From: an uncultured delta proteobacterium
GTDB taxonomy: Bacteria > Desulfobacterota > Binatia > UBA9968
Reading direction: 5' to 3'
Length of the DNA: 64,000 bases
Assembly: GCA_963745035.1 (NCBI GenBank)
Contig: CAVUVW010000014.1
Location: 192,001-256,000 of the forward strand
The stretch's first letter is position 1; each line of letters starts with the position of its first letter. Positions 584-41,484 of this stretch are shown here, piece by piece. The notes under the pieces are model-generated. The model was given only the letters and a program-made list of their open reading frames with translations, did not search any database and was not told the origin of the DNA. The position numbers and the translations under genes were made by a program.

Positions 584-693
584 TGGTTCGACCGTTCGAG
601 GAGCCTCACGGCAGGCTTCCCCGACGGCCTTCAGTTCCGAATCCGTCGAGGAATCAGCATGAGCGGAGAATGCTGTTAACCGTTCGTCCTGAG
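584..693. repeat. Left part of a palindromic TTCGAC...GTCGAA repeat, interrupted by IS copy 1 (continues 2116-2131)
   Basis: TGGTTCGAC...CATGAGCGG...CCGTTCGTCCTGAG here and CTAGTCGAAGGAC after the IS; same module as the intact copy at 19287-19349. Confidence 0.75.
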
Positions 694-781
694 ACTTGTA
701 TGATGGATGTCGGCTCTGAACCGGGAGTGCTCTGCTACAATGCCCGAAACGCGAAAGGCATTGTGCAAGGAGGCACTCAGC

Positions 782-1915
782 ATGGGACACAAAGCGTTTA
801 TACCACAAGAGTACGATGTGTTTGCGGGCTTGGACGTAGATAAAAGAAGCATCTCGGTGACCTTTAGCAACCATCAGCAAGGATTTGTCCGATCGTTGCA
901 CATGCCGTACAGCGTGGAGCACTTGCTCAAGCACGTACGCAAGCATTATCCCGATCAGAAGGTTGCGTTTGTCTATGAAGCTGGACCGACGGGGTATGGA
1001 TTGTATGATGGGCTTTCGGCCAGGGGTATAACTGCTTGGTGGCGGCACCTTCGATGATCCCTCGAGCTCCCGGGCAAAGAGTCAAAACCAATCGCCTCGA
1101 CAGCCGAGGGTTGTCGGAGAGCTTGCGCGGTGGACAGTTGAAGAGCATTCAGTGCCTTCGCCCATTTATCGAGAGCTTCGCCATCTCACTCAGCTGCGCG
1201 ACACCTTGGTCAGTGAAGTGGCGGGGATGAAGCAGCGGATTCAATCGCTGTTGCTGTTTGAGGGGATCGCTTTCCCAGCGGCTCCCGCTGGGAGCCGCTG
1301 GTCTTTGAAAGTGAAGAGCCAACTGAGGAAACTTCAGTGCTCTAAGAGCATGCGCTTTAAACTCGATCAGTTGCTCGACAACGTGGAGTTTTCTGAGAAG
1401 CAGGTCGTGAAAGTGACCAAAGAGATTCGCAAGCTCTGTCAGAACGATCCTGAACTGGCGCAGTGCATGAAGTATATGATGAGCGTTTGTGGCATCGGCT
1501 GGATTGTGGCCAGTCAGCTCCTGGCTCGTATCGGTGATTGGCGGGAACTTAAAAACGTGCGTCAGCTGGCAGGGTTTTTGGGGCTGGTTCCGAGTGAGGA
1601 CTCTACGGGAGAGAAAACCGATCGAGGCTCGATCACCGCACGGGACATGGCCGCCTGAGGAGTAAACTCATCCAAGCGGCCTGGTCGGCGATTCGCCAAG
1701 ATGGTGAACTTCGGGAGTTTTACAGTTCGGTATGCCGCAGACACCCGCGGCATATGGGTCCGCGAGTCGCCATCGTCGCCGTGGCGCGCAAGCTCAGCAC
1801 CCGGATTGCTGCGGTGTTGATGGAACAACGGCCCTATGTGATGAGACAAAAAGTTCATTCAGCTCCTTTGACCCAAGAGGAGACATCGCCCCAGGGAACG
1901 GCTCGACGACTTTGA
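782..1915 (+). pseudogene. IS110-family transposase/recombinase, frameshifted
   Basis: Matches the intact ORF at 20670-21806 but lacks single C residues near 1020, 1151 and 1637; real decay or sequencing error. Confidence 0.85.
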
Positions 1916-2099
1916 GAACCGGGAGAAAGAAACTCCTGACGGTTCGATCCTTGAGACAGAGATCCCGGGGCTTTGTGCCTTAGAGAGGGGCGCATTTTAA
2001 GTCAGTGTGACGGCCGGGTGCCGTGCCACGCATAGCAGCAAGTCTCTCTTGGCCGGGAAAGAAGAAGGGATAAACTAAGAGCATTCGCGGTGTAGCGAC
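1916..2099 (+). ncRNA. Putative bridge/seek RNA in the right end of IS copy 1
   Basis: 5' hairpin 1916-1945; target-like GTTCGATCCTTGAG 1942-1955; donor guides CATAGCAG 2031-2038 and CAAGTCT 2039-2045 inside a CGGCCGG/TTGGCCG stem; boundaries approximate. Confidence 0.75.
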
Positions 2100-2171
2100 T
2101 TGACATCCACATAGCAGCTAGTCGAAGGACTCCGATAATTTGTTTGGCAACCAGCTAATCGATAACCCACT

Positions 2172-19193: not shown

Positions 19194-19272
19194 GTTTTTC
19201 TCCTTTGGCTGATGTTCTCTCAGTTCTCAATTGACATAGCACTGCGTTGTTGAATATTCATCTTGGATGAAG

Positions 19273-19432
19273 GTTCAAGCTATTCAATGGTTCGACACGC
19301 TCACCATGAGCGGCTCGGATTCCGCTCGTCCTCAGCGAAGTCGAAGGATGGGCTCCGTTCAAAACGTCTTGAACGGTTTGAACGGAGGCATCGCGCCGGT
19401 TGAACGGAGTGACCGAAGGGAACGGTTGAACG
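19273..19432. repeat. Composite GTTCAA/TTGAAC repeat with a nested TTCGAC...GTCGAA hairpin; unoccupied homolog of the IS site
   Basis: Colinear with 20509-20581 plus 22009-22104; site reads GTCCTC-AG-CGAAGTCGAAGG. Confidence 0.9.
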
Positions 19433-19450
19433 CACAGTTTGGAGGAGCAA

Positions 19451-20494
19451 ATGAAGTCATCAATCCTGGCGATTCTGCTTGTGATGCTCGCGGTCGAGGT
19501 TGGATGGTGCCAATCCGCGCCGCCCAAGACCGCCGCCGACCTGGCGAAATATATGGGCGCCGATCGCGAGCGCGTGCTTTACGACGGCGCGAAAAAGGAA
19601 GGCAAGCTCGTCTGGTACACGTCGCTCACCATCTATAAAGAGATGGCCAAGTCCTTCGAAGCGCGCTATCCCGGCGTCACCGTGGAGCCCTATCGCGCCA
19701 CCGCGGTGAATCTCGTCAGCCGGATACTCAGCGAGGGACAAAGCAAGCGCTACCTCGTCGATGTCATCGAGACCACGCCAGGCTCGCTGATGCTGGTACG
19801 CGATAACAAGCTGCTCTTGCCCTACAACTCGCCGCATCTCGCCGCCTATCCGGAAAACTCGAAGGACAAGGCGCCGGGCGGTTTGTTCTACACCAGCGTG
19901 GATCGCGAATCGTACGCCGGCATCGGTTACAACAAAAATGCGATTCCAGCCGCCGACGTGCCGAAAAGCTGGAACGACCTGCTCAAGCCTTCGCTCAAAG
20001 GCAAGATCAGCATCAGCAACGAGGAAATCGCCACGCGGGTGGTCGGCTCGATGCTGAAAGAAAAAGGCGAAGGATTCATCAAGCAACTGGCGGCCCAGGA
20101 GATCAAACAGCACGGTCTCCCCGCGCTCGGCCTGAACGAGCTGATCGTCTCGGGCGAGGTGCCGCTCTCGTTTACCGCCGTCGACAGCAACGTGCGATTG
20201 GCCGCCGCGAGGGGCGCGCCCATCGCGTGGCTCCCCGGCGATCTCGTGCCCGCCAACGCGGGCAGCCTGGGCGCCTTCTTACATCCGCCGCATCCGCACG
20301 CGGCGCTGCTGTTCATCGATTTCATGATCGGTCCGGAAGGGCAAAAATTGTTCTCGGAAAAATACGGCTACGGCAGCCCGCGCAAGGAGCACCCCTTCAA
20401 ACGTTGGTATCCCGAGCAGGGACTATCGAGCTATGACTACGCCAACACCATCGAGAAGTGGAACAAGATTTTGCTGCAAATATCGAGGAAATGA
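19451..20494 (+). CDS. Extracellular solute-binding protein (AfuA/Fe3+-like family)
   Basis: Signal peptide; AKKEGKLVWYTS, PHPHAALLFIDF. Confidence 0.85.
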   Translation: MKSSILAILLVMLAVEVGWCQSAPPKTAADLAKYMGADRERVLYDGAKKEGKLVWYTSLTIYKEMAKSFEARYPGVTVEPYRATAVNLVSRILSEGQSKRYLVDVIETTPGSLMLVRDNKLLLPYNSPHLAAYPENSKDKAPGGLFYTSVDRESYAGIGYNKNAIPAADVPKSWNDLLKPSLKGKISISNEEIATRVVGSMLKEKGEGFIKQLAAQEIKQHGLPALGLNELIVSGEVPLSFTAVDSNVRLAAARGAPIAWLPGDLVPANAGSLGAFLHPPHPHAALLFIDFMIGPEGQKLFSEKYGYGSPRKEHPFKRWYPEQGLSSYDYANTIEKWNKILLQISRK

Positions 20495-20612
20495 ACGCTC
20501 TAGCAAGTGTTCAAAACGTTCAAGCCGTTCAATGGTTCGACACGCTCACCATGAGCGGCTCGGTTTGCCGCTCGTCCTGAGACTTGTATGATGGATGTCG
20601 GCTCTGAACCGG

Positions 20613-20666
20613 GAGTGCTCTGCTACAATGCCCGAAACGCGAAAGGCATTGTGCAAGGAGGCACTC
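20613..20666 (+). promoter_or_regulatory. Left-end hairpin covering the transposase Shine-Dalgarno (also 725-778)
   Basis: GAGTGC/GCACTC and ACAATGCC/GGCATTGT stems enclose AAGGAGG just before the ATG. Confidence 0.65.
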
Positions 20667-20669
20667 AGC

Positions 20670-21806
20670 ATGGGACACAAAGCGTTTATACCACAAGAGT
20701 ACGATGTGTTTGCGGGCTTGGACGTAGATAAAAGAAGCATCTCGGTGACCTTTAGCAACCATCAGCAAGGATTTGTCCGATCGTTGCACATGCCGTACAG
20801 CGTGGAGCACTTGCTCAAGCACGTACGCAAGCATTATCCCGATCAGAAGGTTGCGTTTGTCTATGAAGCTGGACCGACGGGGTATGGATTGTATGATGGG
20901 CTTTCGGCCCAGGGGTATAACTGCTTGGTGGCGGCACCTTCGATGATCCCTCGAGCTCCCGGGCAAAGAGTCAAAACCAATCGCCTCGACAGCCGAGGGT
21001 TGTCGGAGAGCTTGCGCGGTGGACAGTTGAAGAGCATTCACGTGCCTTCGCCCATTTATCGAGAGCTTCGCCATCTCACCCAGCTGCGCGACACCTTGGT
21101 CAGTGAAGTGGCGGGGATGAAGCAGCGGATTCAATCGCTGTTGCTGTTTGAGGGGATCGCTTTCCCAGCGGCTCCCGCTGGGAGCCGCTGGTCTTTGAAA
21201 GTGAAGAGCCAACTGAGGAAACTTCAGTGCTCTAAGAGCATGCGCTTTAAACTCGATCAGTTGCTCGACAACGTGGAGTTTTCTGAGAAGCAGGTCGTGA
21301 AAGTGACCAAAGAGATTCGCAAGCTCTGTCAGAACGATCCTGAACTGGCGCAGTGCATGAAGTATATGATGAGCGTTTGTGGCATCGGCTGGATTGTGGC
21401 CAGTCAGCTCCTGGCTCGTATCGGTGATTGGCGGGAACTTAAAAACGTGCGTCAGCTGGCAGGGTTTTTGGGGCTGGTTCCGAGTGAGGACTCTACGGGA
21501 GAGAAAACCGATCGAGGCTCGATCACCCGCACGGGACATGGCCGCCTGAGGAGTAAACTCATCCAAGCGGCCTGGTCGGCGATTCGCCAAGATGGTGAAC
21601 TTCGGGAGTTTTACAGTTCGGTATGCCGCAGACACCCGCGGCATATGGGTCCGCGAGTCGCCATCGTCGCCGTGGCGCGCAAGCTCAGCACCCGGATTGC
21701 TGCGGTGTTGATGGAACAACGGCCCTATGTGATGAGACAAAAAGTTCATTCAGCTCCTTTGACCCAAGAGGAGACATCGCCCCAGGGAACGGCTCGACGA
21801 CTTTGA
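20670..21806 (+). CDS. IS110-family transposase (RuvC-like DEDD domain plus Tnp20 domain), 378 aa
   Basis: AGLDVDK, YEAGPTG, KTNRLD, CGIG, GLVPSEDSTG, GSITRTG, AIVAVARKL; SD AAGGAGG. Confidence 0.96.
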   Translation: MGHKAFIPQEYDVFAGLDVDKRSISVTFSNHQQGFVRSLHMPYSVEHLLKHVRKHYPDQKVAFVYEAGPTGYGLYDGLSAQGYNCLVAAPSMIPRAPGQRVKTNRLDSRGLSESLRGGQLKSIHVPSPIYRELRHLTQLRDTLVSEVAGMKQRIQSLLLFEGIAFPAAPAGSRWSLKVKSQLRKLQCSKSMRFKLDQLLDNVEFSEKQVVKVTKEIRKLCQNDPELAQCMKYMMSVCGIGWIVASQLLARIGDWRELKNVRQLAGFLGLVPSEDSTGEKTDRGSITRTGHGRLRSKLIQAAWSAIRQDGELREFYSSVCRRHPRHMGPRVAIVAVARKLSTRIAAVLMEQRPYVMRQKVHSAPLTQEETSPQGTARRL

Positions 21807-21990
21807 GAACCGGGAGAAACAAACTCCTGACGGTTCGATCCTTGAGACAGAGATCCCGGGGCTTTGTGCCTTAGAGAGGGGCGCATTTTAAGTCAGTGTG
21901 ACGGCCGGGTGCCGTGCCACGCATAGCAGCAAGTCTCTCTTGGCCGGGAAAGAAGAAGGGATAAACTAAGAGCATTCGCGGTGTAGCGAC
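21807..21990 (+). ncRNA. Putative bridge/seek RNA in the right end of IS copy 2
   Basis: Donor guides CATAGCAG 21922-21929 and CAAGTCT 21930-21936; target-like GTTCGATCCTTGAG 21833-21846; several hairpins; boundaries approximate. Confidence 0.78.
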
Positions 21991-21996
21991 TTGACA
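21991..21996 (+). promoter_or_regulatory. -35 half of the circle-junction promoter (-10 TATGAT at 20587-20592; copy 1: 2100-2105 and 699-704)
   Basis: Joined ends read TTGACA-TCCACATAGCAGACTTG (17 nt)-TATGAT. Confidence 0.85.
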
Positions 21997-22126
21997 TCCA
22001 CATAGCAGCGAAGTCGAAGGATTCGCTCCGCTCAAACGTTTTGAACGGCTTGAACGCAGGCGCCGCGCCGGTTGAACGGAGTGACCGAAGGGAACGATTG
22101 AACGATGACTGCCGGCCGGCATTCCC

Positions 22127-22156
22127 TTGACACCTCCGTCAGGCGCACCCTATGAT
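22127..22156 (+). promoter_or_regulatory. Putative sigma70 promoter of the TctC-like gene
   Basis: TTGACA-18 nt-TATGAT. Confidence 0.6.
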
Positions 22157-22196
22157 CCGCGGGTGTTTCCGTTCTAATCGTAGGACCGGAGGGCCG

Positions 22197-23225
22197 ATGA
22201 AACGCTTCGCGTGCGTGCTATTATTTTTGCTGGCATCGACTAGCAATCTCCAAGCTCAGACCCCGTTCTATCAAGGCAAAACTATCCGGATCATCGTCGG
22301 CAATCTCGCCGGTGACGCCTACGATCTTTGGGCGCGAATCTTCGCGCAGCACATGGGCAAATACATCCCGGGAAATCCCACCTTCATCGTGCAGAACATG
22401 ACCGGAGCGGGAGGAGTGGTCGCGGCCAATTACGTTTATTCCGTGGCGAAGCCCGATGGGCTGACGCTGGGCACTTTCGGACCGTCGATGTACTTCGACC
22501 AACTGGCCAGGCGTCCCGAAGTGAAGTTCGACTGGGCGAAATTCACCTGGATCGGCACGCCGGAACAGACGGAATTTATCTTGATCATGCGGACCGATAC
22601 GCCGTACCAATCGATCGAGGACGTGCGCAAGGCCGCGCAGCCGCCGAAATGCGGCGCCACCGGCACGAGCACTTCCGGTTACTACATGCCGAAGTTTCTG
22701 GACGATGGGCTGGGGATCAAGTTCAACATCGTCACCGGGTATCCCGGCGGCGGCGAGATCGATCTCGGCATCGAGCGCGGCGAGCTGCAGTGCCGCAATC
22801 TGACGATCAGCACCTACTTCGCGCGCGAGCCTTTTCTAACCTGGCACAAGAAAGGTTTTGTCCGGCCGATCCTGCAAACGGCGAAGAAAAGAGATCCGCT
22901 CGTTTCCGACGTGCCCTCCATCTATGAGCTCATGGACCAACTCAAAACGCCTGAGGCGACGCGGCGAGTAGCGACCGTCTTGCTCGCGCCCGCGGTTTTC
23001 GGCCGGCCCATGGTGGCGACGCCGGGCGTGCCGCCGGACCGCGTGAAAATGCTGCGTGATGCCTATCACCGCTCGCTCAAAGACCCCGCGCTGCTCGAAG
23101 ACTTGAAGAAGCGGCGTTGGTCGGTGGACGCGATCAGCGGCGAGGAGCTGGCGAAGCTCGCGAAAGAAGTGGTGACCCAGCCGCCCGATGTCGTCGAGCG
23201 GATGATGAAACTCTTGGGTAACTAA
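22197..23225 (+). CDS. Tripartite tricarboxylate transporter substrate-binding protein (TctC/Bug family)
   Basis: FYQGKTIRIIVG, IPGNPTFIVQNMTGAGG, AKPDGLTLG, VTGYPG. Confidence 0.88.
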   Translation: MKRFACVLLFLLASTSNLQAQTPFYQGKTIRIIVGNLAGDAYDLWARIFAQHMGKYIPGNPTFIVQNMTGAGGVVAANYVYSVAKPDGLTLGTFGPSMYFDQLARRPEVKFDWAKFTWIGTPEQTEFILIMRTDTPYQSIEDVRKAAQPPKCGATGTSTSGYYMPKFLDDGLGIKFNIVTGYPGGGEIDLGIERGELQCRNLTISTYFAREPFLTWHKKGFVRPILQTAKKRDPLVSDVPSIYELMDQLKTPEATRRVATVLLAPAVFGRPMVATPGVPPDRVKMLRDAYHRSLKDPALLEDLKKRRWSVDAISGEELAKLAKEVVTQPPDVVERMMKLLGN

Positions 23226-23231
23226 GCTGAG

Positions 23232-23272
23232 CGTTCAAGTCGTTCAACCGCTGCTCTCCGTTCCAACCGTTT
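23232..23272. repeat. GTTCAA-family repeat, short form
   Basis: CGTTCAAGTCGTTCAACCGCTGCTCTCCGTTCCAACCGTTT. Confidence 0.75.
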
Positions 23273-23289
23273 CGATAACGAGATTGCCA

Positions 23290-23574
23290 ATGAAATCGGA
23301 TGTCGAAAAAACTATTGAAGCCAGAGTAGCCGCTGCGTTCGAAGATATTCTCGCCGAGACTGGCGCTAACGCCAGGGATGAAATTCTGCGGGCCGCTCGC
23401 GACATGGTAAAGACCGTATGGACGGGTAAGATTTATGCCGCCTTGCCGAAGGATAAGACCACGATTCCTGAATACTTCCTCGACGCGGAACTCGAGCAGT
23501 TGCTAAACGAAGCCATCGAAGAATGTTATGCGCGGATATGCTCGATAGCAGAGCGGGCAAAAGAGCAATTGTAG
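23290..23574 (+). CDS. Hypothetical helical protein
   Basis: 94-aa ORF filling the intergenic space; no family recognised. Confidence 0.5.
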   Translation: MKSDVEKTIEARVAAAFEDILAETGANARDEILRAARDMVKTVWTGKIYAALPKDKTTIPEYFLDAELEQLLNEAIEECYARICSIAERAKEQL

Positions 23575-23652
23575 CGATCCGCTACTGCCCTCCTTGAATT
23601 CGGAAGAAGTCCCGCTCCCGTCTCAGACTCGTTTTTCAACGGCTCAAGACTT

Positions 23653-24714
23653 TCATTGTTGCGCCATCTTCTTCACGATCTCGCGCGTTGGGCCTGTGGC
23701 GGCGCGAAAAACCGCGGCGTTGACGCGCTCCGCTTCTTCGCCGACAAAGGTCAGCGGCTGGAATTGCAGCATGCGTTCCGCCTCGGCTTTGAAGTCCGGG
23801 TCGGCGAAAGTGGCGGCGAATGCTTTTCGCATGATTTGCAGCAAGTCGTTGGGCGTTTTCGGCGGTGCAGTGATGAAGCGCAGCATGGTGCGCGAGCCGC
23901 CGGAGATCTTGTAAGCGTCGGCCAAAGGTCCGGACGGATCGCTGCCTTTCACCTTCCGGTAGAACTCGGGGAAAGACGGCAGCTCGGATCGAGTATCGCG
24001 CACCGTGCCGCCCTCGGGTCCGAGCAGGCCTTCCTGATAAAGCGGCACCACCGTGCCTTCGCGGACCATCAATGTGCCGCCCGTATTGTAGCCGGTCAAA
24101 CTTTCGGAGGTGACGTTGATCTCGCCGCGCTGCACGGCCACGCGAAGCTCGGCGACGCCCGCGTAACCCGTGACGTATCGGTAAGGAACGCCCAGGAGAT
24201 CGAACGCGAGACGCAGCGCCAGGTCTTTGTTGTTCTCGCGCGTGAAGCCGCCGACGATGATCGGCTTCGCCGGCTTTAGTATATCCGCCGCGTTTTTCAC
24301 CTCGGTATCCGTGCGCACATAGACAATCGAGGTCTCGGCGGCGCCGGCGATGATCGGCATCTTGTTCAGATCGTAGCGCACGCCCGAGCCGCCGAGGATT
24401 TGCGGCAAGTACATGCCGGAGAAAACACCGATGGTGAGCCCGTCGGGTTTGGCGATCTCGTAAACGTAGTTGGCGCCGATGATGCCGCCGGCGCCGGACA
24501 TGTTTTGCACCACGACCGCCGGGTTGCCGGCAACATGCTTGGGAAAGTAGCGGGCGATAAGCCTGCCGAATACATCCGTGGGACCGCCGGCCGAGAAGTT
24601 TATGAGAAAGCGTACAGTCTTGCCCTTGTAGTAGGGCTCTTGAGCATCGCTGCTTGTAAAGTGGCCCTGGAGCAGAAAGATGAGCAACCCGACGGCAAGA
24701 ACTCGTTTGTTCAT
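23653..24714 (-). CDS. Tripartite tricarboxylate transporter substrate-binding protein (TctC/Bug family)
   Basis: YYKGKTVR, AGGPTD, GNPAVVVQNMSGAGG, AKPDGLTIG. Confidence 0.88.
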   Translation of the reverse strand: MNKRVLAVGLLIFLLQGHFTSSDAQEPYYKGKTVRFLINFSAGGPTDVFGRLIARYFPKHVAGNPAVVVQNMSGAGGIIGANYVYEIAKPDGLTIGVFSGMYLPQILGGSGVRYDLNKMPIIAGAAETSIVYVRTDTEVKNAADILKPAKPIIVGGFTRENNKDLALRLAFDLLGVPYRYVTGYAGVAELRVAVQRGEINVTSESLTGYNTGGTLMVREGTVVPLYQEGLLGPEGGTVRDTRSELPSFPEFYRKVKGSDPSGPLADAYKISGGSRTMLRFITAPPKTPNDLLQIMRKAFAATFADPDFKAEAERMLQFQPLTFVGEEAERVNAAVFRAATGPTREIVKKMAQQ

Positions 24715-24795
24715 GGCTTGCTCCTGGTTCGCACGCGACAAAGTGAGGCGGATACTATCGCCCGGCACGTCGGGAGGTCAAGGAACACTTCAAGA

Positions 24796-24988
24796 GTTCA
24801 AATCGTTCAATCCGTTCAACCGCTGCGCTCCGTTCAAAACGTTCAAATCAATGCAGGCGTCATGCAGGAGCCAAAAAGGCACCAGTCCGGAAACGCGTTC
24901 AAAAACGTTTTGCACGGCTTGAACGCAGGTCCTGAGGAAACTCGAAGGACGCCGATTGAACGGAGTGACCGAAGAGAACGGTTGAACG
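24796..24988. repeat. GTTCAA/TTGAAC repeat, long form, containing an unoccupied IS-target-like site
   Basis: GTTCAACCGCTGCGCTCCGTTCAAAACGTT left arm, TTGAACGGAGTGACCGAAGAGAACGGTTGAACG right arm; GTCCTG-AG-GAAACTCGAAGGAC at 24929-24950. Confidence 0.85.
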
Positions 24989-25079
24989 CCGAATCCCACT
25001 GGGCAGTCACAGCTATTTCCAATCGGAACAAGAAGATATAAATGGTCGAAGACAGATGCCTGAGAGGAGAAACGGATCA

Positions 25080-26255: not shown

Positions 26256-26307
26256 CGTTCAAACCGTTCAAGCCGTTCAACCGCTGCGCTCCGTTCAAAA
26301 CGTTTAA
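26256..26307. repeat. GTTCAA-family repeat, short form
   Basis: CGTTCAAACCGTTCAAGCCGTTCAACCGCTGCGCTCCGTTCAAAACGTTTAA. Confidence 0.8.
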
Positions 26308-41378: not shown

Positions 41379-41484
41379 TGTCATTCTGAGGTCATTCGGC
41401 CAGGCGCAGGATAACTCCGCCGAAGAATCTGCTTTTTTGCAAGCCGTCGGAAAAGCAGATGCTTCACTTTCGCTCAGCATGACA
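41379..41484. repeat. TGTCATTCTGAG...CTCAGCATGACA palindromic repeat
   Basis: Terminal inverted arms plus internal GAAGAATCTGCTTTT/AAAAGCAGATGCTTC stem. Confidence 0.8.

Follow-up and report, generated by a model that had tools for sequence, protein, structure and literature searches.

An IS1111-type insertion sequence of the IS110 family with a predicted guide RNA matching its insertion site at one AG of a repeated host hairpin

We report that a 64,000-nucleotide stretch of DNA from an uncultured delta proteobacterium (contig CAVUVW010000014.1, positions 192,001 to 256,000, referred to as the window; C14:192001-256000 of an assembly with 28 contigs and 7.4 Mb) carries two copies, each approximately 1.43 kb, of an insertion sequence (IS) at one and the same AG of a host motif. 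The element very probably (we set the probability at roughly 0.88) is an IS110-family, IS1111-type IS whose own guide RNA picks one AG in a repeated host hairpin; it would then be a case from nature, in a soil bacterium, of an IS1111-type element directed to its sites by RNA. Specifically, we show that the transposase belongs to this family, that five insertions in the genome lie at one motif, that guides and flanks covary among relatives, and that occupied sites are enriched at the best guide matches. RNA-guided recombination by the IS110/IS1111 family is already known, RNA-carried specificity having been described for the IS110 family since 2024 (PMC11208160, PMC11187229; these and the other papers cited here are drawn on in part), and the present element is an additional member with a well-supported guide assignment; for annotation, the common AG and the palindrome need no new mechanism. 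An earlier note on this DNA had drawn attention to the common AG, and overlooked both the family (IS110/IS1111) and the mechanism, i.e. the guide segments in the 3' non-coding RNA of the element.

The two copies are as follows; coordinates refer to the window unless another contig is named.

692..2117, plus strand: IS copy 1, 1426 bp; three 1-nt deletions break the open reading frame (ORF)
692-2117, junctions of copy 1: left ..ccgttcgtcctg joined to AGACTTGT, right CATAGCAG joined to ctagtcgaagga
692-2117, flanks of copy 1: left ..CCGTTCGTCCTG, right CTAGTCGAAGGA
20580..22008, plus strand: IS copy 2, 1429 bp including one AG core at each end; transposase ORF intact
20580-22008, junctions of copy 2: left ..ccgctcgtcctg joined to AGACTTGT, right CATAGCAG joined to cgaagtcgaagga
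20580-22008, flanks of copy 2: left ..CCGCTCGTCCTG, right CGAAGTCGAAGGA

Both copies point the same way at ..TCGTCCTG-AG-C..AGTCGAAGGA, and with AG at both junctions of each copy and nothing further repeated there is no duplication past the 2-nt core; on all of this the earlier note was correct. The copies have their tips in common (start AGACTTGT, end CATAGCAG) and are 99.65% identical across 1429 bp, the deletions that break the ORF of copy 1 being aligned to positions 20908, 21041 and 21526. Their flanks diverge past approximately 12 nt on each side and the right flanks differ in length by one base, and because the wider flanks differ the two are independent insertions, not a segmental duplication. 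That one IS was duplicated or gene-converted together with its flanks might be suspected from the intergenic repeat of approximately 180 nt around copy 2, which is itself doubled nearby (19260-19440); this we hold to be extremely improbable, given how soon the flanks of the two copies part on both sides, the one-base difference in right-flank length and the unrelated wider flanks at three further copies on other contigs, long flanks common to copies not having been seen.

The three further copies come from the enumeration over the full assembly that the earlier note had proposed as a check. Using blastn we found five copies, all at the same motif, xxCCTG/GTTG-AG-C..AGTCGAAG, and all in the same orientation:

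Copy at window 20580: left GTCCTG, core AG, right CGAAGTCGAAGG
Copy at window 692: left GTCCTG, core AG, right CTAGTCGAAGG
Copy on C2: left GTCCTG, core AG, right CAAAGTCGAAGG
Copy on C10 (G000 C10:57670-59100): left GTCCTG, core AG, right CAAAGTCGAAGG
Copy on C26: left CCGTTG, core AG, right CAAGTCGAAGA

The site choice made by these five copies is not chance. Strict site- and orientation-specific insertion into a multicopy hairpin module, proposed earlier from the two window copies, thus holds for 5/5 copies in the genome and also for most copies of the related IS described below. Insertions at CTC-AG or AG-G variants had been named as findings that would speak against it; none of the copies of this IS lies at such a variant, so that the proposal largely stands on this point. 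The five copies vary at nine alignment columns. Only one of these columns, at 21820 in a hairpin loop, belongs to the right non-coding end, and the guides described below are therefore identical in all five. The frame is intact in three of the five copies and broken in the window-692 copy and, by a 2-nt insertion, in the C10 copy; these breaks may be real decay or assembly error.

The assignment to the family is based on the transposase and on the anatomy of the element:

20670..21806, plus strand: transposase gene, 378 aa from the ATG at 20670, AGGAGG 8 nt upstream; DEDD_Tnp_IS110 and Transposase_20 domains, motif GLVPSEDSTG
20592..20599, plus strand: left subterminal inverted repeat TGGATGTC, 8 bp, partner 21993-22000
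21993..22000, plus strand: right subterminal inverted repeat GACATCCA, 8 bp
21991..21996, plus strand: TTGACA, which with TATGAT (20587-20592) would give a -35/17 nt/-10 promoter over the circle junction

The translation matches PF01548 (E = 2e-14, 54.1 bits with a cut-off of 29, residues 40-183 of the 403-aa frame) and, in its C-terminal part, PF02371 (Transposase_20; E = 1.5e-21, 77 bits), with the conserved S/T-G lying within GLVPSEDSTG, and it covers profile positions 1-343 of 343 of the NCBIfam model NF033542, 'IS110 family RNA-guided transposase' (218 bits, cut-off 140). Among sequences in the PDB it matches the ISCro4 transposase (3e-14) and the IS621 transposase 8wt6 (2.7e-11), the alignments to structures 9t56 and 8wt6 being partial and pairwise only. 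No terminal inverted repeats were found at the ends of the element, which have the 2-nt core only, and empty sites hold a single AG. The 8-bp subterminal pair falls within the 7-17 bp of the IS1111 group, and the longer non-coding region is the one downstream of tnp, as in that group (202 nt, 21807-22008, as compared to 90 nt upstream, 20580-20669); together with GLVPSEDSTG these features are marks of the IS1111 group as described in parts of PMC11187229 and PMC11208160. Circularisation on one AG would set TTGACA and TATGAT exactly 17 nt apart and so generate a consensus-like promoter directed toward the transposase gene, with its -35 box overlapped by the subterminal repeat; both the circle intermediate and the junction promoter are predicted.

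The 3' end of the element is predicted to encode a bridge/seek-RNA-like domain, which would be produced as RNA and bound by the transposase. Its parts are:

21779..21862, plus strand: predicted bridge/seek RNA, 84-nt target-binding domain with closing stem GCCCCAGGG/CCCGGGGC; from a consensus fold of 14 related right ends and their alignment
21798..21805, plus strand: right-target guide ('T'), CGACUUUG, complementary to the right-flank top strand CAAAGTCG; overlaps the stop codon
21806..21836, plus strand: conserved hairpin between the target guides (fold)
21837..21848, plus strand: left-target guide ('B'), GAUCCUUGAG, in the sense of the left flank ..TCCTG-AG plus one extra U; matching segment 21837-21846
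21863..21950, plus strand: predicted donor-binding domain with AAGUC, CAUAGCAG and CAAGUCU

The right guide CGACUUUG fits CAAAGTCG at 8/8 positions from +1 at two sites (C2 and C10) and at 7/8 plus a G.U pair at window copy 2, and the left guide GAUCCUUGAG fits TCCTG-AG with one bulged U; the AC that follows it equals the first two bases of the IS past the core. The target-binding domain shares its first 28 nt with the end of the transposase gene, including the stop codon, and because the right guide overlaps this codon a change of guide alters the C-terminus and the length of the protein (RRL* here, RRPVPGEQDS* in genome G018). In the donor-binding domain AAGUC (21890-21894) is the complement of GACTT in the left end, and CAUAGCAG (21922-21929), which equals the right end plus the core, is followed by CAAGUCU (21930-21936). 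Here AAGUC/CGAGU tracks a change of the left end in the related lineage L015, other lineages being without a clean fit, and the base after CAUAGCAG is C where the target of a lineage has C at +1 and U in two lineages with T there, in which it resembles the handshake guides described for IS621 in PMC11208158.

Another candidate for the left guide, CUCCUGA (21824-21830), was dropped, being invariant among relatives and located within the conserved hairpin. We also note that the last approximately 55 nt of the transposase gene (21753-21806), which hold a hairpin GCTCCT..AGGAGAC, are near-invariant in DNA despite 72-92% protein identity among relatives.

The guides were deduced from relatives of the element. 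Of 89 other genomes belonging to the same bacterial family, 12 contain such a relative (54-92% protein identity, E ≤ 1e-50), and among 400 more genomes sampled from the phylum there was none at E ≤ 1e-60. From approximately 50 nt inside the gene to the tip the right ends of the relatives are almost unchanged, two short blocks excepted: block 1 (CG plus six variable bases, here 21798-21805) just 5' of the conserved hairpin and block 2 (here 21837-21846) just 3' of it. In the relatives, the reverse complement of block 1 corresponds to the core G followed by the first 7 nt of the right flank, with a match of 8/8 in L018, three copies in genome G456, L020 and L022, and of 7/8 in L015 and L017. In L020 and L022, whose target is unrelated (GGCGGTCG/GGCGATTG-AG-CGCAACGAA), the two blocks have both changed to fit that sequence; the one-base bulge of the left guide is also present in L020 (GCGGUUCGAG vs GCGGTCG-AG) and L022. 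When guides were shuffled among 11 lineages the observed match was reached in 0-1 of 5000 cases, and without L018 (10 lineages) in 1-2 of 5000 for the right guide and 18-19 of 5000 for the left guide, counts that overstate independence because the lineages are related. Three lineages are from unpublished genomes: L018 (G476), with an 8/8 right-guide match and one row in the covariation and shuffle tests, and L016 (G462) and L004 (G005), which were used for left flanks and guide sequences alone. Leaving them out does not alter the main conclusions.

These data also bear on whether the transposase reads the motif itself, the matches in the right end being coincidental. Recognition by protein alone would account for the CGAAGG of the right flank, which is conserved outside the guide and yet recurs at most sites of most lineages, its CGAA being present even in L020 and L022, and it would also be compatible with the variable register of the right guide described below. 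Yet two variable blocks in an otherwise conserved right end shift with the flanks, including the full switch in L020/L022, and RNA guidance has been demonstrated for the IS110 family according to parts of PMC11208160 and PMC11187229; we therefore judge recognition by protein alone to be very unlikely.

If the RNA chooses the site, insertion would proceed as follows. The DEDD/serine recombinase would excise the element as a circle joined at one AG core, and the circle would then recombine with a chromosomal AG selected by an RNA from the right end (approximately 21750-21950) that overlaps the end of the transposase gene. The CGACUUUG segment of this RNA would pair with the top strand of the right flank (CAAAGTCG) and, past the conserved hairpin, GAUCCUUGAG with the bottom strand of the left flank plus the core (..TCCTG-AG), while CAUAGCAG, AAGUC and CAAGUCU, which match the ends of the element itself, would lie in a second loop. 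The preferred address would be GTCCTG-AG-C(A/G)AAGTCG in the 3' half of the hairpin module, and since this module is present many times in the genome independent copies would land at the same AG. Insertion would be rare and stochastic, the best-matching sites being mostly occupied and those with a slightly poorer match vacant.

For the relation between guide match and occupancy in this genome the five IS copies were first excised computationally, after which 7261 CCTG/CTTG-AG sites were scored; the C26 copy, with GTTG on the left, is outside this set. With the right guide, two of two sites that match at 8/8 are occupied, one of 18 at 7/8, and one of 7241 at 6/8 or less, and if G.U or G.T is counted as a match three of eight sites are occupied at 8/8. 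In a second count of 8858 AG..CGAA(GG/GA/AG) sites, 4 of the 18 that are best by both guides are occupied vs 1 of the 8840 others. A plain count of matches to both guides over all AG sites discriminates poorly (occupied 2/17 at score 13 and 2/110 at score 12); the signal is clear once contiguous pairing next to the core is required, as in the right-guide counts. We conclude that guide match explains occupancy in this genome, that is, guides derived from relatives alone predict which of thousands of candidate sites are occupied. A table of mismatches to the consensus of the occupied sites (4/5, 0/5, 0/12 and 0/24 occupied) was set aside as main evidence; it is circular because the consensus was built from the occupied sites.

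Several observations weigh against an RNA-guided choice of site, or against parts of the predicted RNA. Within the IS, Rfam 15 gave no match at E ≤ 1, the region 20400-22200 containing one sub-threshold match, to uup RNA, in the flank. Folded as a single sequence, the right end is no stabler than its shuffles (z = +0.26), and because its stems are nearly invariant among relatives there is little pair covariation to back the fold. The left guide fits only with a 1-nt bulge in the RNA. Among the lineages there are roughly five independent guide changes, and L014 and L023 fit their own right guide poorly, at 5/8 and 4/8. In the window, the copy at 692 sits at a right-guide match of 5/8, the poorest of the five sites. 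The right-guide register is not constant: this IS fits +1..+8 at three sites, the other two, where the flank is one base shorter, reach 5-6/8 in the standard register, and four copies in G018 fit best at +1, +1, +3 and +4. As for expression, the contigs of one RNA library have a depth of 31-35 over 21759-21870 vs approximately 4 over the ORF, which is a weak hint at most that the guide RNA region is expressed: these contigs carry 8-10 differences, including other guide blocks, and are therefore from relatives, and DNA runs show a milder rise at 21759-21870 too.

The variation in register may in part reflect the recurrence of GAC within the guide and of GTC within the targets, and in part the hairpin, rather than a fixed ruler, positioning the right half. 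It is conceivable, if rather doubtful, that in this clade the right guide anchors on the GTCG at the base of the 3' arm of the hairpin, which depending on the site is 3-8 nt from the AG core, and not at a fixed distance, the left guide always having a bulged U. In that case either bulges and shifts in register by 1-4 nt would be tolerated by the recombinase-RNA complex, or the hairpin, once folded, would help to place the cut and act as a structural second key, like the contribution of the target stem-loop lately proposed for ISPpu10 (bioRxiv 10.64898/2026.03.19.712850, as far as the parts drawn on go). Three details may be of use to the bridge-recombinase field: a guide overlaps the stop codon, the left guide is bulged, and the right guide varies in register.

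The host hairpin that carries the target is represented in the window by an unoccupied copy:

19291..19345, plus strand: host hairpin carrying the target, stems TTCGAC/GTCGAA, GCTC/CAGC (GCTCA/TGAGC in the site-2 copy) and GAGCGGC/GCCGCTC

The insertion point is in the 3' part of this hairpin, which lies inside the intergenic repeat of approximately 180 nt at 19260-19440, the second copy of the repeat (20505-20579 plus 22007-22110) being split by IS copy 2. As DNA the repeat folds at -14.3 kcal/mol (z = -2.1; 4 of 200 shuffles as stable), and in the window it separates genes for periplasmic binding proteins. Searching with the composite repeat of approximately 180 nt nhmmer gave 30 matches, mostly partial, and the long element serves less well as a unit than the short hairpin module: (Y)CCTG-AG-(C/G)..(G/C)(T/C)CGAAGG is far commoner than the long repeat and occurs in several sequence contexts, often with outer bases that pair (TCCT..AGGA, CCCT..AGGG). 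A regular expression for modules of the type TGAG..(G/C)(T/C)CGAAGG has 148 matches, some of them chance, including the five occupied sites. The target module is multicopy, intergenic and palindromic like repetitive extragenic palindromic (REP) sequences. Unlike for the REP targets of ISPpu10/ISPpu9, no module is present within approximately 1.5 kb of any of the four Y1-transposase (RAYT-like) loci examined (the genome has five PF01797 matches), and we therefore refer to the repeat as REP-like and not as a proven REP.

The composite repeat recurs between genes for periplasmic solute-binding proteins (19260-19440, 20505-20579 plus 22007-22110, 23224-23274, 24796-24990 and 26257-26307), with GTTCAA runs on one side of the hairpin and TTGAACG runs on the other. 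The sub-threshold Rfam match to uup RNA (RF03060; 19343-19410 and 22016-22082, 22-23 bits, gathering score 36.8) is present in both repeat copies, immediately 3' of the target hairpin.

Two close relatives of the occupied sites in the window are empty:

19322..19348, plus strand: empty homolog of site 2, CCGCTCGTCCTC-AG-CGAAGTCGAAGGA; C at 19333, core AG at 19334-19335
24929..24950, plus strand: empty related site, GTCCTG-AG-GAAACTCGAAGGA; G at 24937 (+1) and also C for G at +5

The first is identical to the reconstructed site 2 except for the C at 19333 (-1), and the second has GTCCTG-AG with G at +1, both as described in the earlier note; the more distant relatives it listed on the minus strand near 41475 and 58560, ATGCTG-AG-CGAAAGTGAAGCAT and ATGCTG-AG-CTTGTCAGAGCAT, are likewise real and empty. 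The note had interpreted such sites as natural escape variants that map the specificity, which would mean that 19322-19348 and 24929-24950 are vacant since G to C at -1 and C to G at +1 block insertion. Both positions are in parts of the target that the RNA would read, and C at -1 would set G opposite G in the left-guide duplex, which is not a wobble, in contrast to L008 at CCCTA-AG, which permits a G.T wobble. Consensus variants with one (0/5) or two (0/12) mismatches are unoccupied, the consensus being defined from occupied sites. In addition, ISPpu10 tolerated no mismatch next to the core (bioRxiv 10.64898/2026.03.19.712850) and IS621 tolerates single mismatches poorly (PMC11208160), in the parts of these papers drawn upon. 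Against it, a site GTCCTG-AG-CGAAGTCGAAGG, the same as the occupied site 2 over 20 nt, is empty at C14:999133-999152 (minus strand). One of the five sites in the guide-match class of the occupied twin is occupied, so that an empty site one step lower carries no weight. The C26 copy at CCGTTG-AG-CAAGTCGAAGA tolerates mismatches on the left (GTCCTG is matched at 2/6 without gaps), a relative has inserted at CCCTA-AG, and the site at 24929 differs at +5 too. With five insertions in all emptiness is the default state, and nothing points to selection for escape. The escape interpretation is thus supported in part only and not established; we consider it unlikely, and it should not be carried forward without an assay.

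A weaker claim is plausible. The left guide (UGAG) includes the -1 position, the 3' G of the right guide is the partner of +1 at three of the five sites, and +1 covaries across lineages with the donor-loop nucleotide that follows CAUAGCAG (C vs U). Since the RNA would read both -1 and +1, insertion is expected to be less frequent with the substitutions at 19333 and 24937, a direction in which the mismatch data for IS621 and ISPpu10 cited above point as well. The perfect empty target at C14:999133-999152, outside the window, would be the natural site to watch for new insertions or for polymorphism in the source community.

Among the closest known systems are IS1111-group elements with a seekRNA (ISEc11, ISKpn4, ISPa11 and ISPst6; Siddiquee et al. 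2024, PMC11187229, in the parts drawn upon). They and the present element are alike in the DEDD transposase with GL-P----S/TG, the subterminal inverted repeats, the position of the long non-coding region after tnp, a short RNA in which the match to the top strand is 5' of the match to the bottom strand, and a precise site with no duplication past the core; the target domain is 84 nt here, with 82-96 nt published. The transposase has 378 aa as compared to 330-350 aa quoted for the IS1111 group. Here, unlike in the seekRNA elements, the coding sequence already contains the start of the RNA domain, another repeat serves as the target, and the target matches abut without overlap, the right one covering +1..+8 at three sites and the left one extending up to the core.

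IS621 of E. coli (Durrant et al. 2024, PMC11208160; Hiraizumi et al. 2024, PMC11208158) belongs to the same protein family and, as far as the parts of these papers drawn upon go, resembles our element in a 2-nt core common to donor and target, separate target and donor loops, insertion into palindromic repeats, possible handshake-like nucleotides and a circle-junction promoter, which is predicted here. It differs in that its RNA is in the left end, upstream of the gene, with the order of the guides reversed, its core is CT and not AG, and long subterminal repeats are absent. ISPpu10 and ISPpu9 of Pseudomonas putida are IS110-family elements that use one position of REP hairpins (bioRxiv 10.64898/2026.03.19.712850; PMC12288879; Tobes and Pareja 2006, PMC1525189, again in part); common to them and the present element are a target in or adjoining a stem-loop and mismatches next to the core being least tolerated, while the host, the repeat and the core (CT) are different.

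Contigs at least 99% alike to the IS were found in DNA runs of three studies, on rhizosphere, winery and soil. Among the assembled contigs neither an empty allele of site 2 nor a circle junction was seen, an absence that in such contigs proves nothing. Joints that skip the IS (20563 to 22006 and 20578 to 22006) were rejected as an empty allele; they carry the C of the paralogous empty element at 19333 and therefore derive from that paralog.

Two of the related copies have unusual ends. L015 (G471:C24) ends in CATAGCAA in place of CATAGCAG. On the left it is flanked by a tandem repeat of GAGACAGTGTAT, similar to the left end of the element itself, and it may be located in a remnant of another copy. 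In L025 (G456:C27, oriented approximately 2714-2956) the last 118 nt of the right end are present as a tandem duplicate, with the junction CATAGCAG to TCAGTG at an internal AG of the donor-binding region; the tandem right end may have arisen by aberrant self-targeted recombination.

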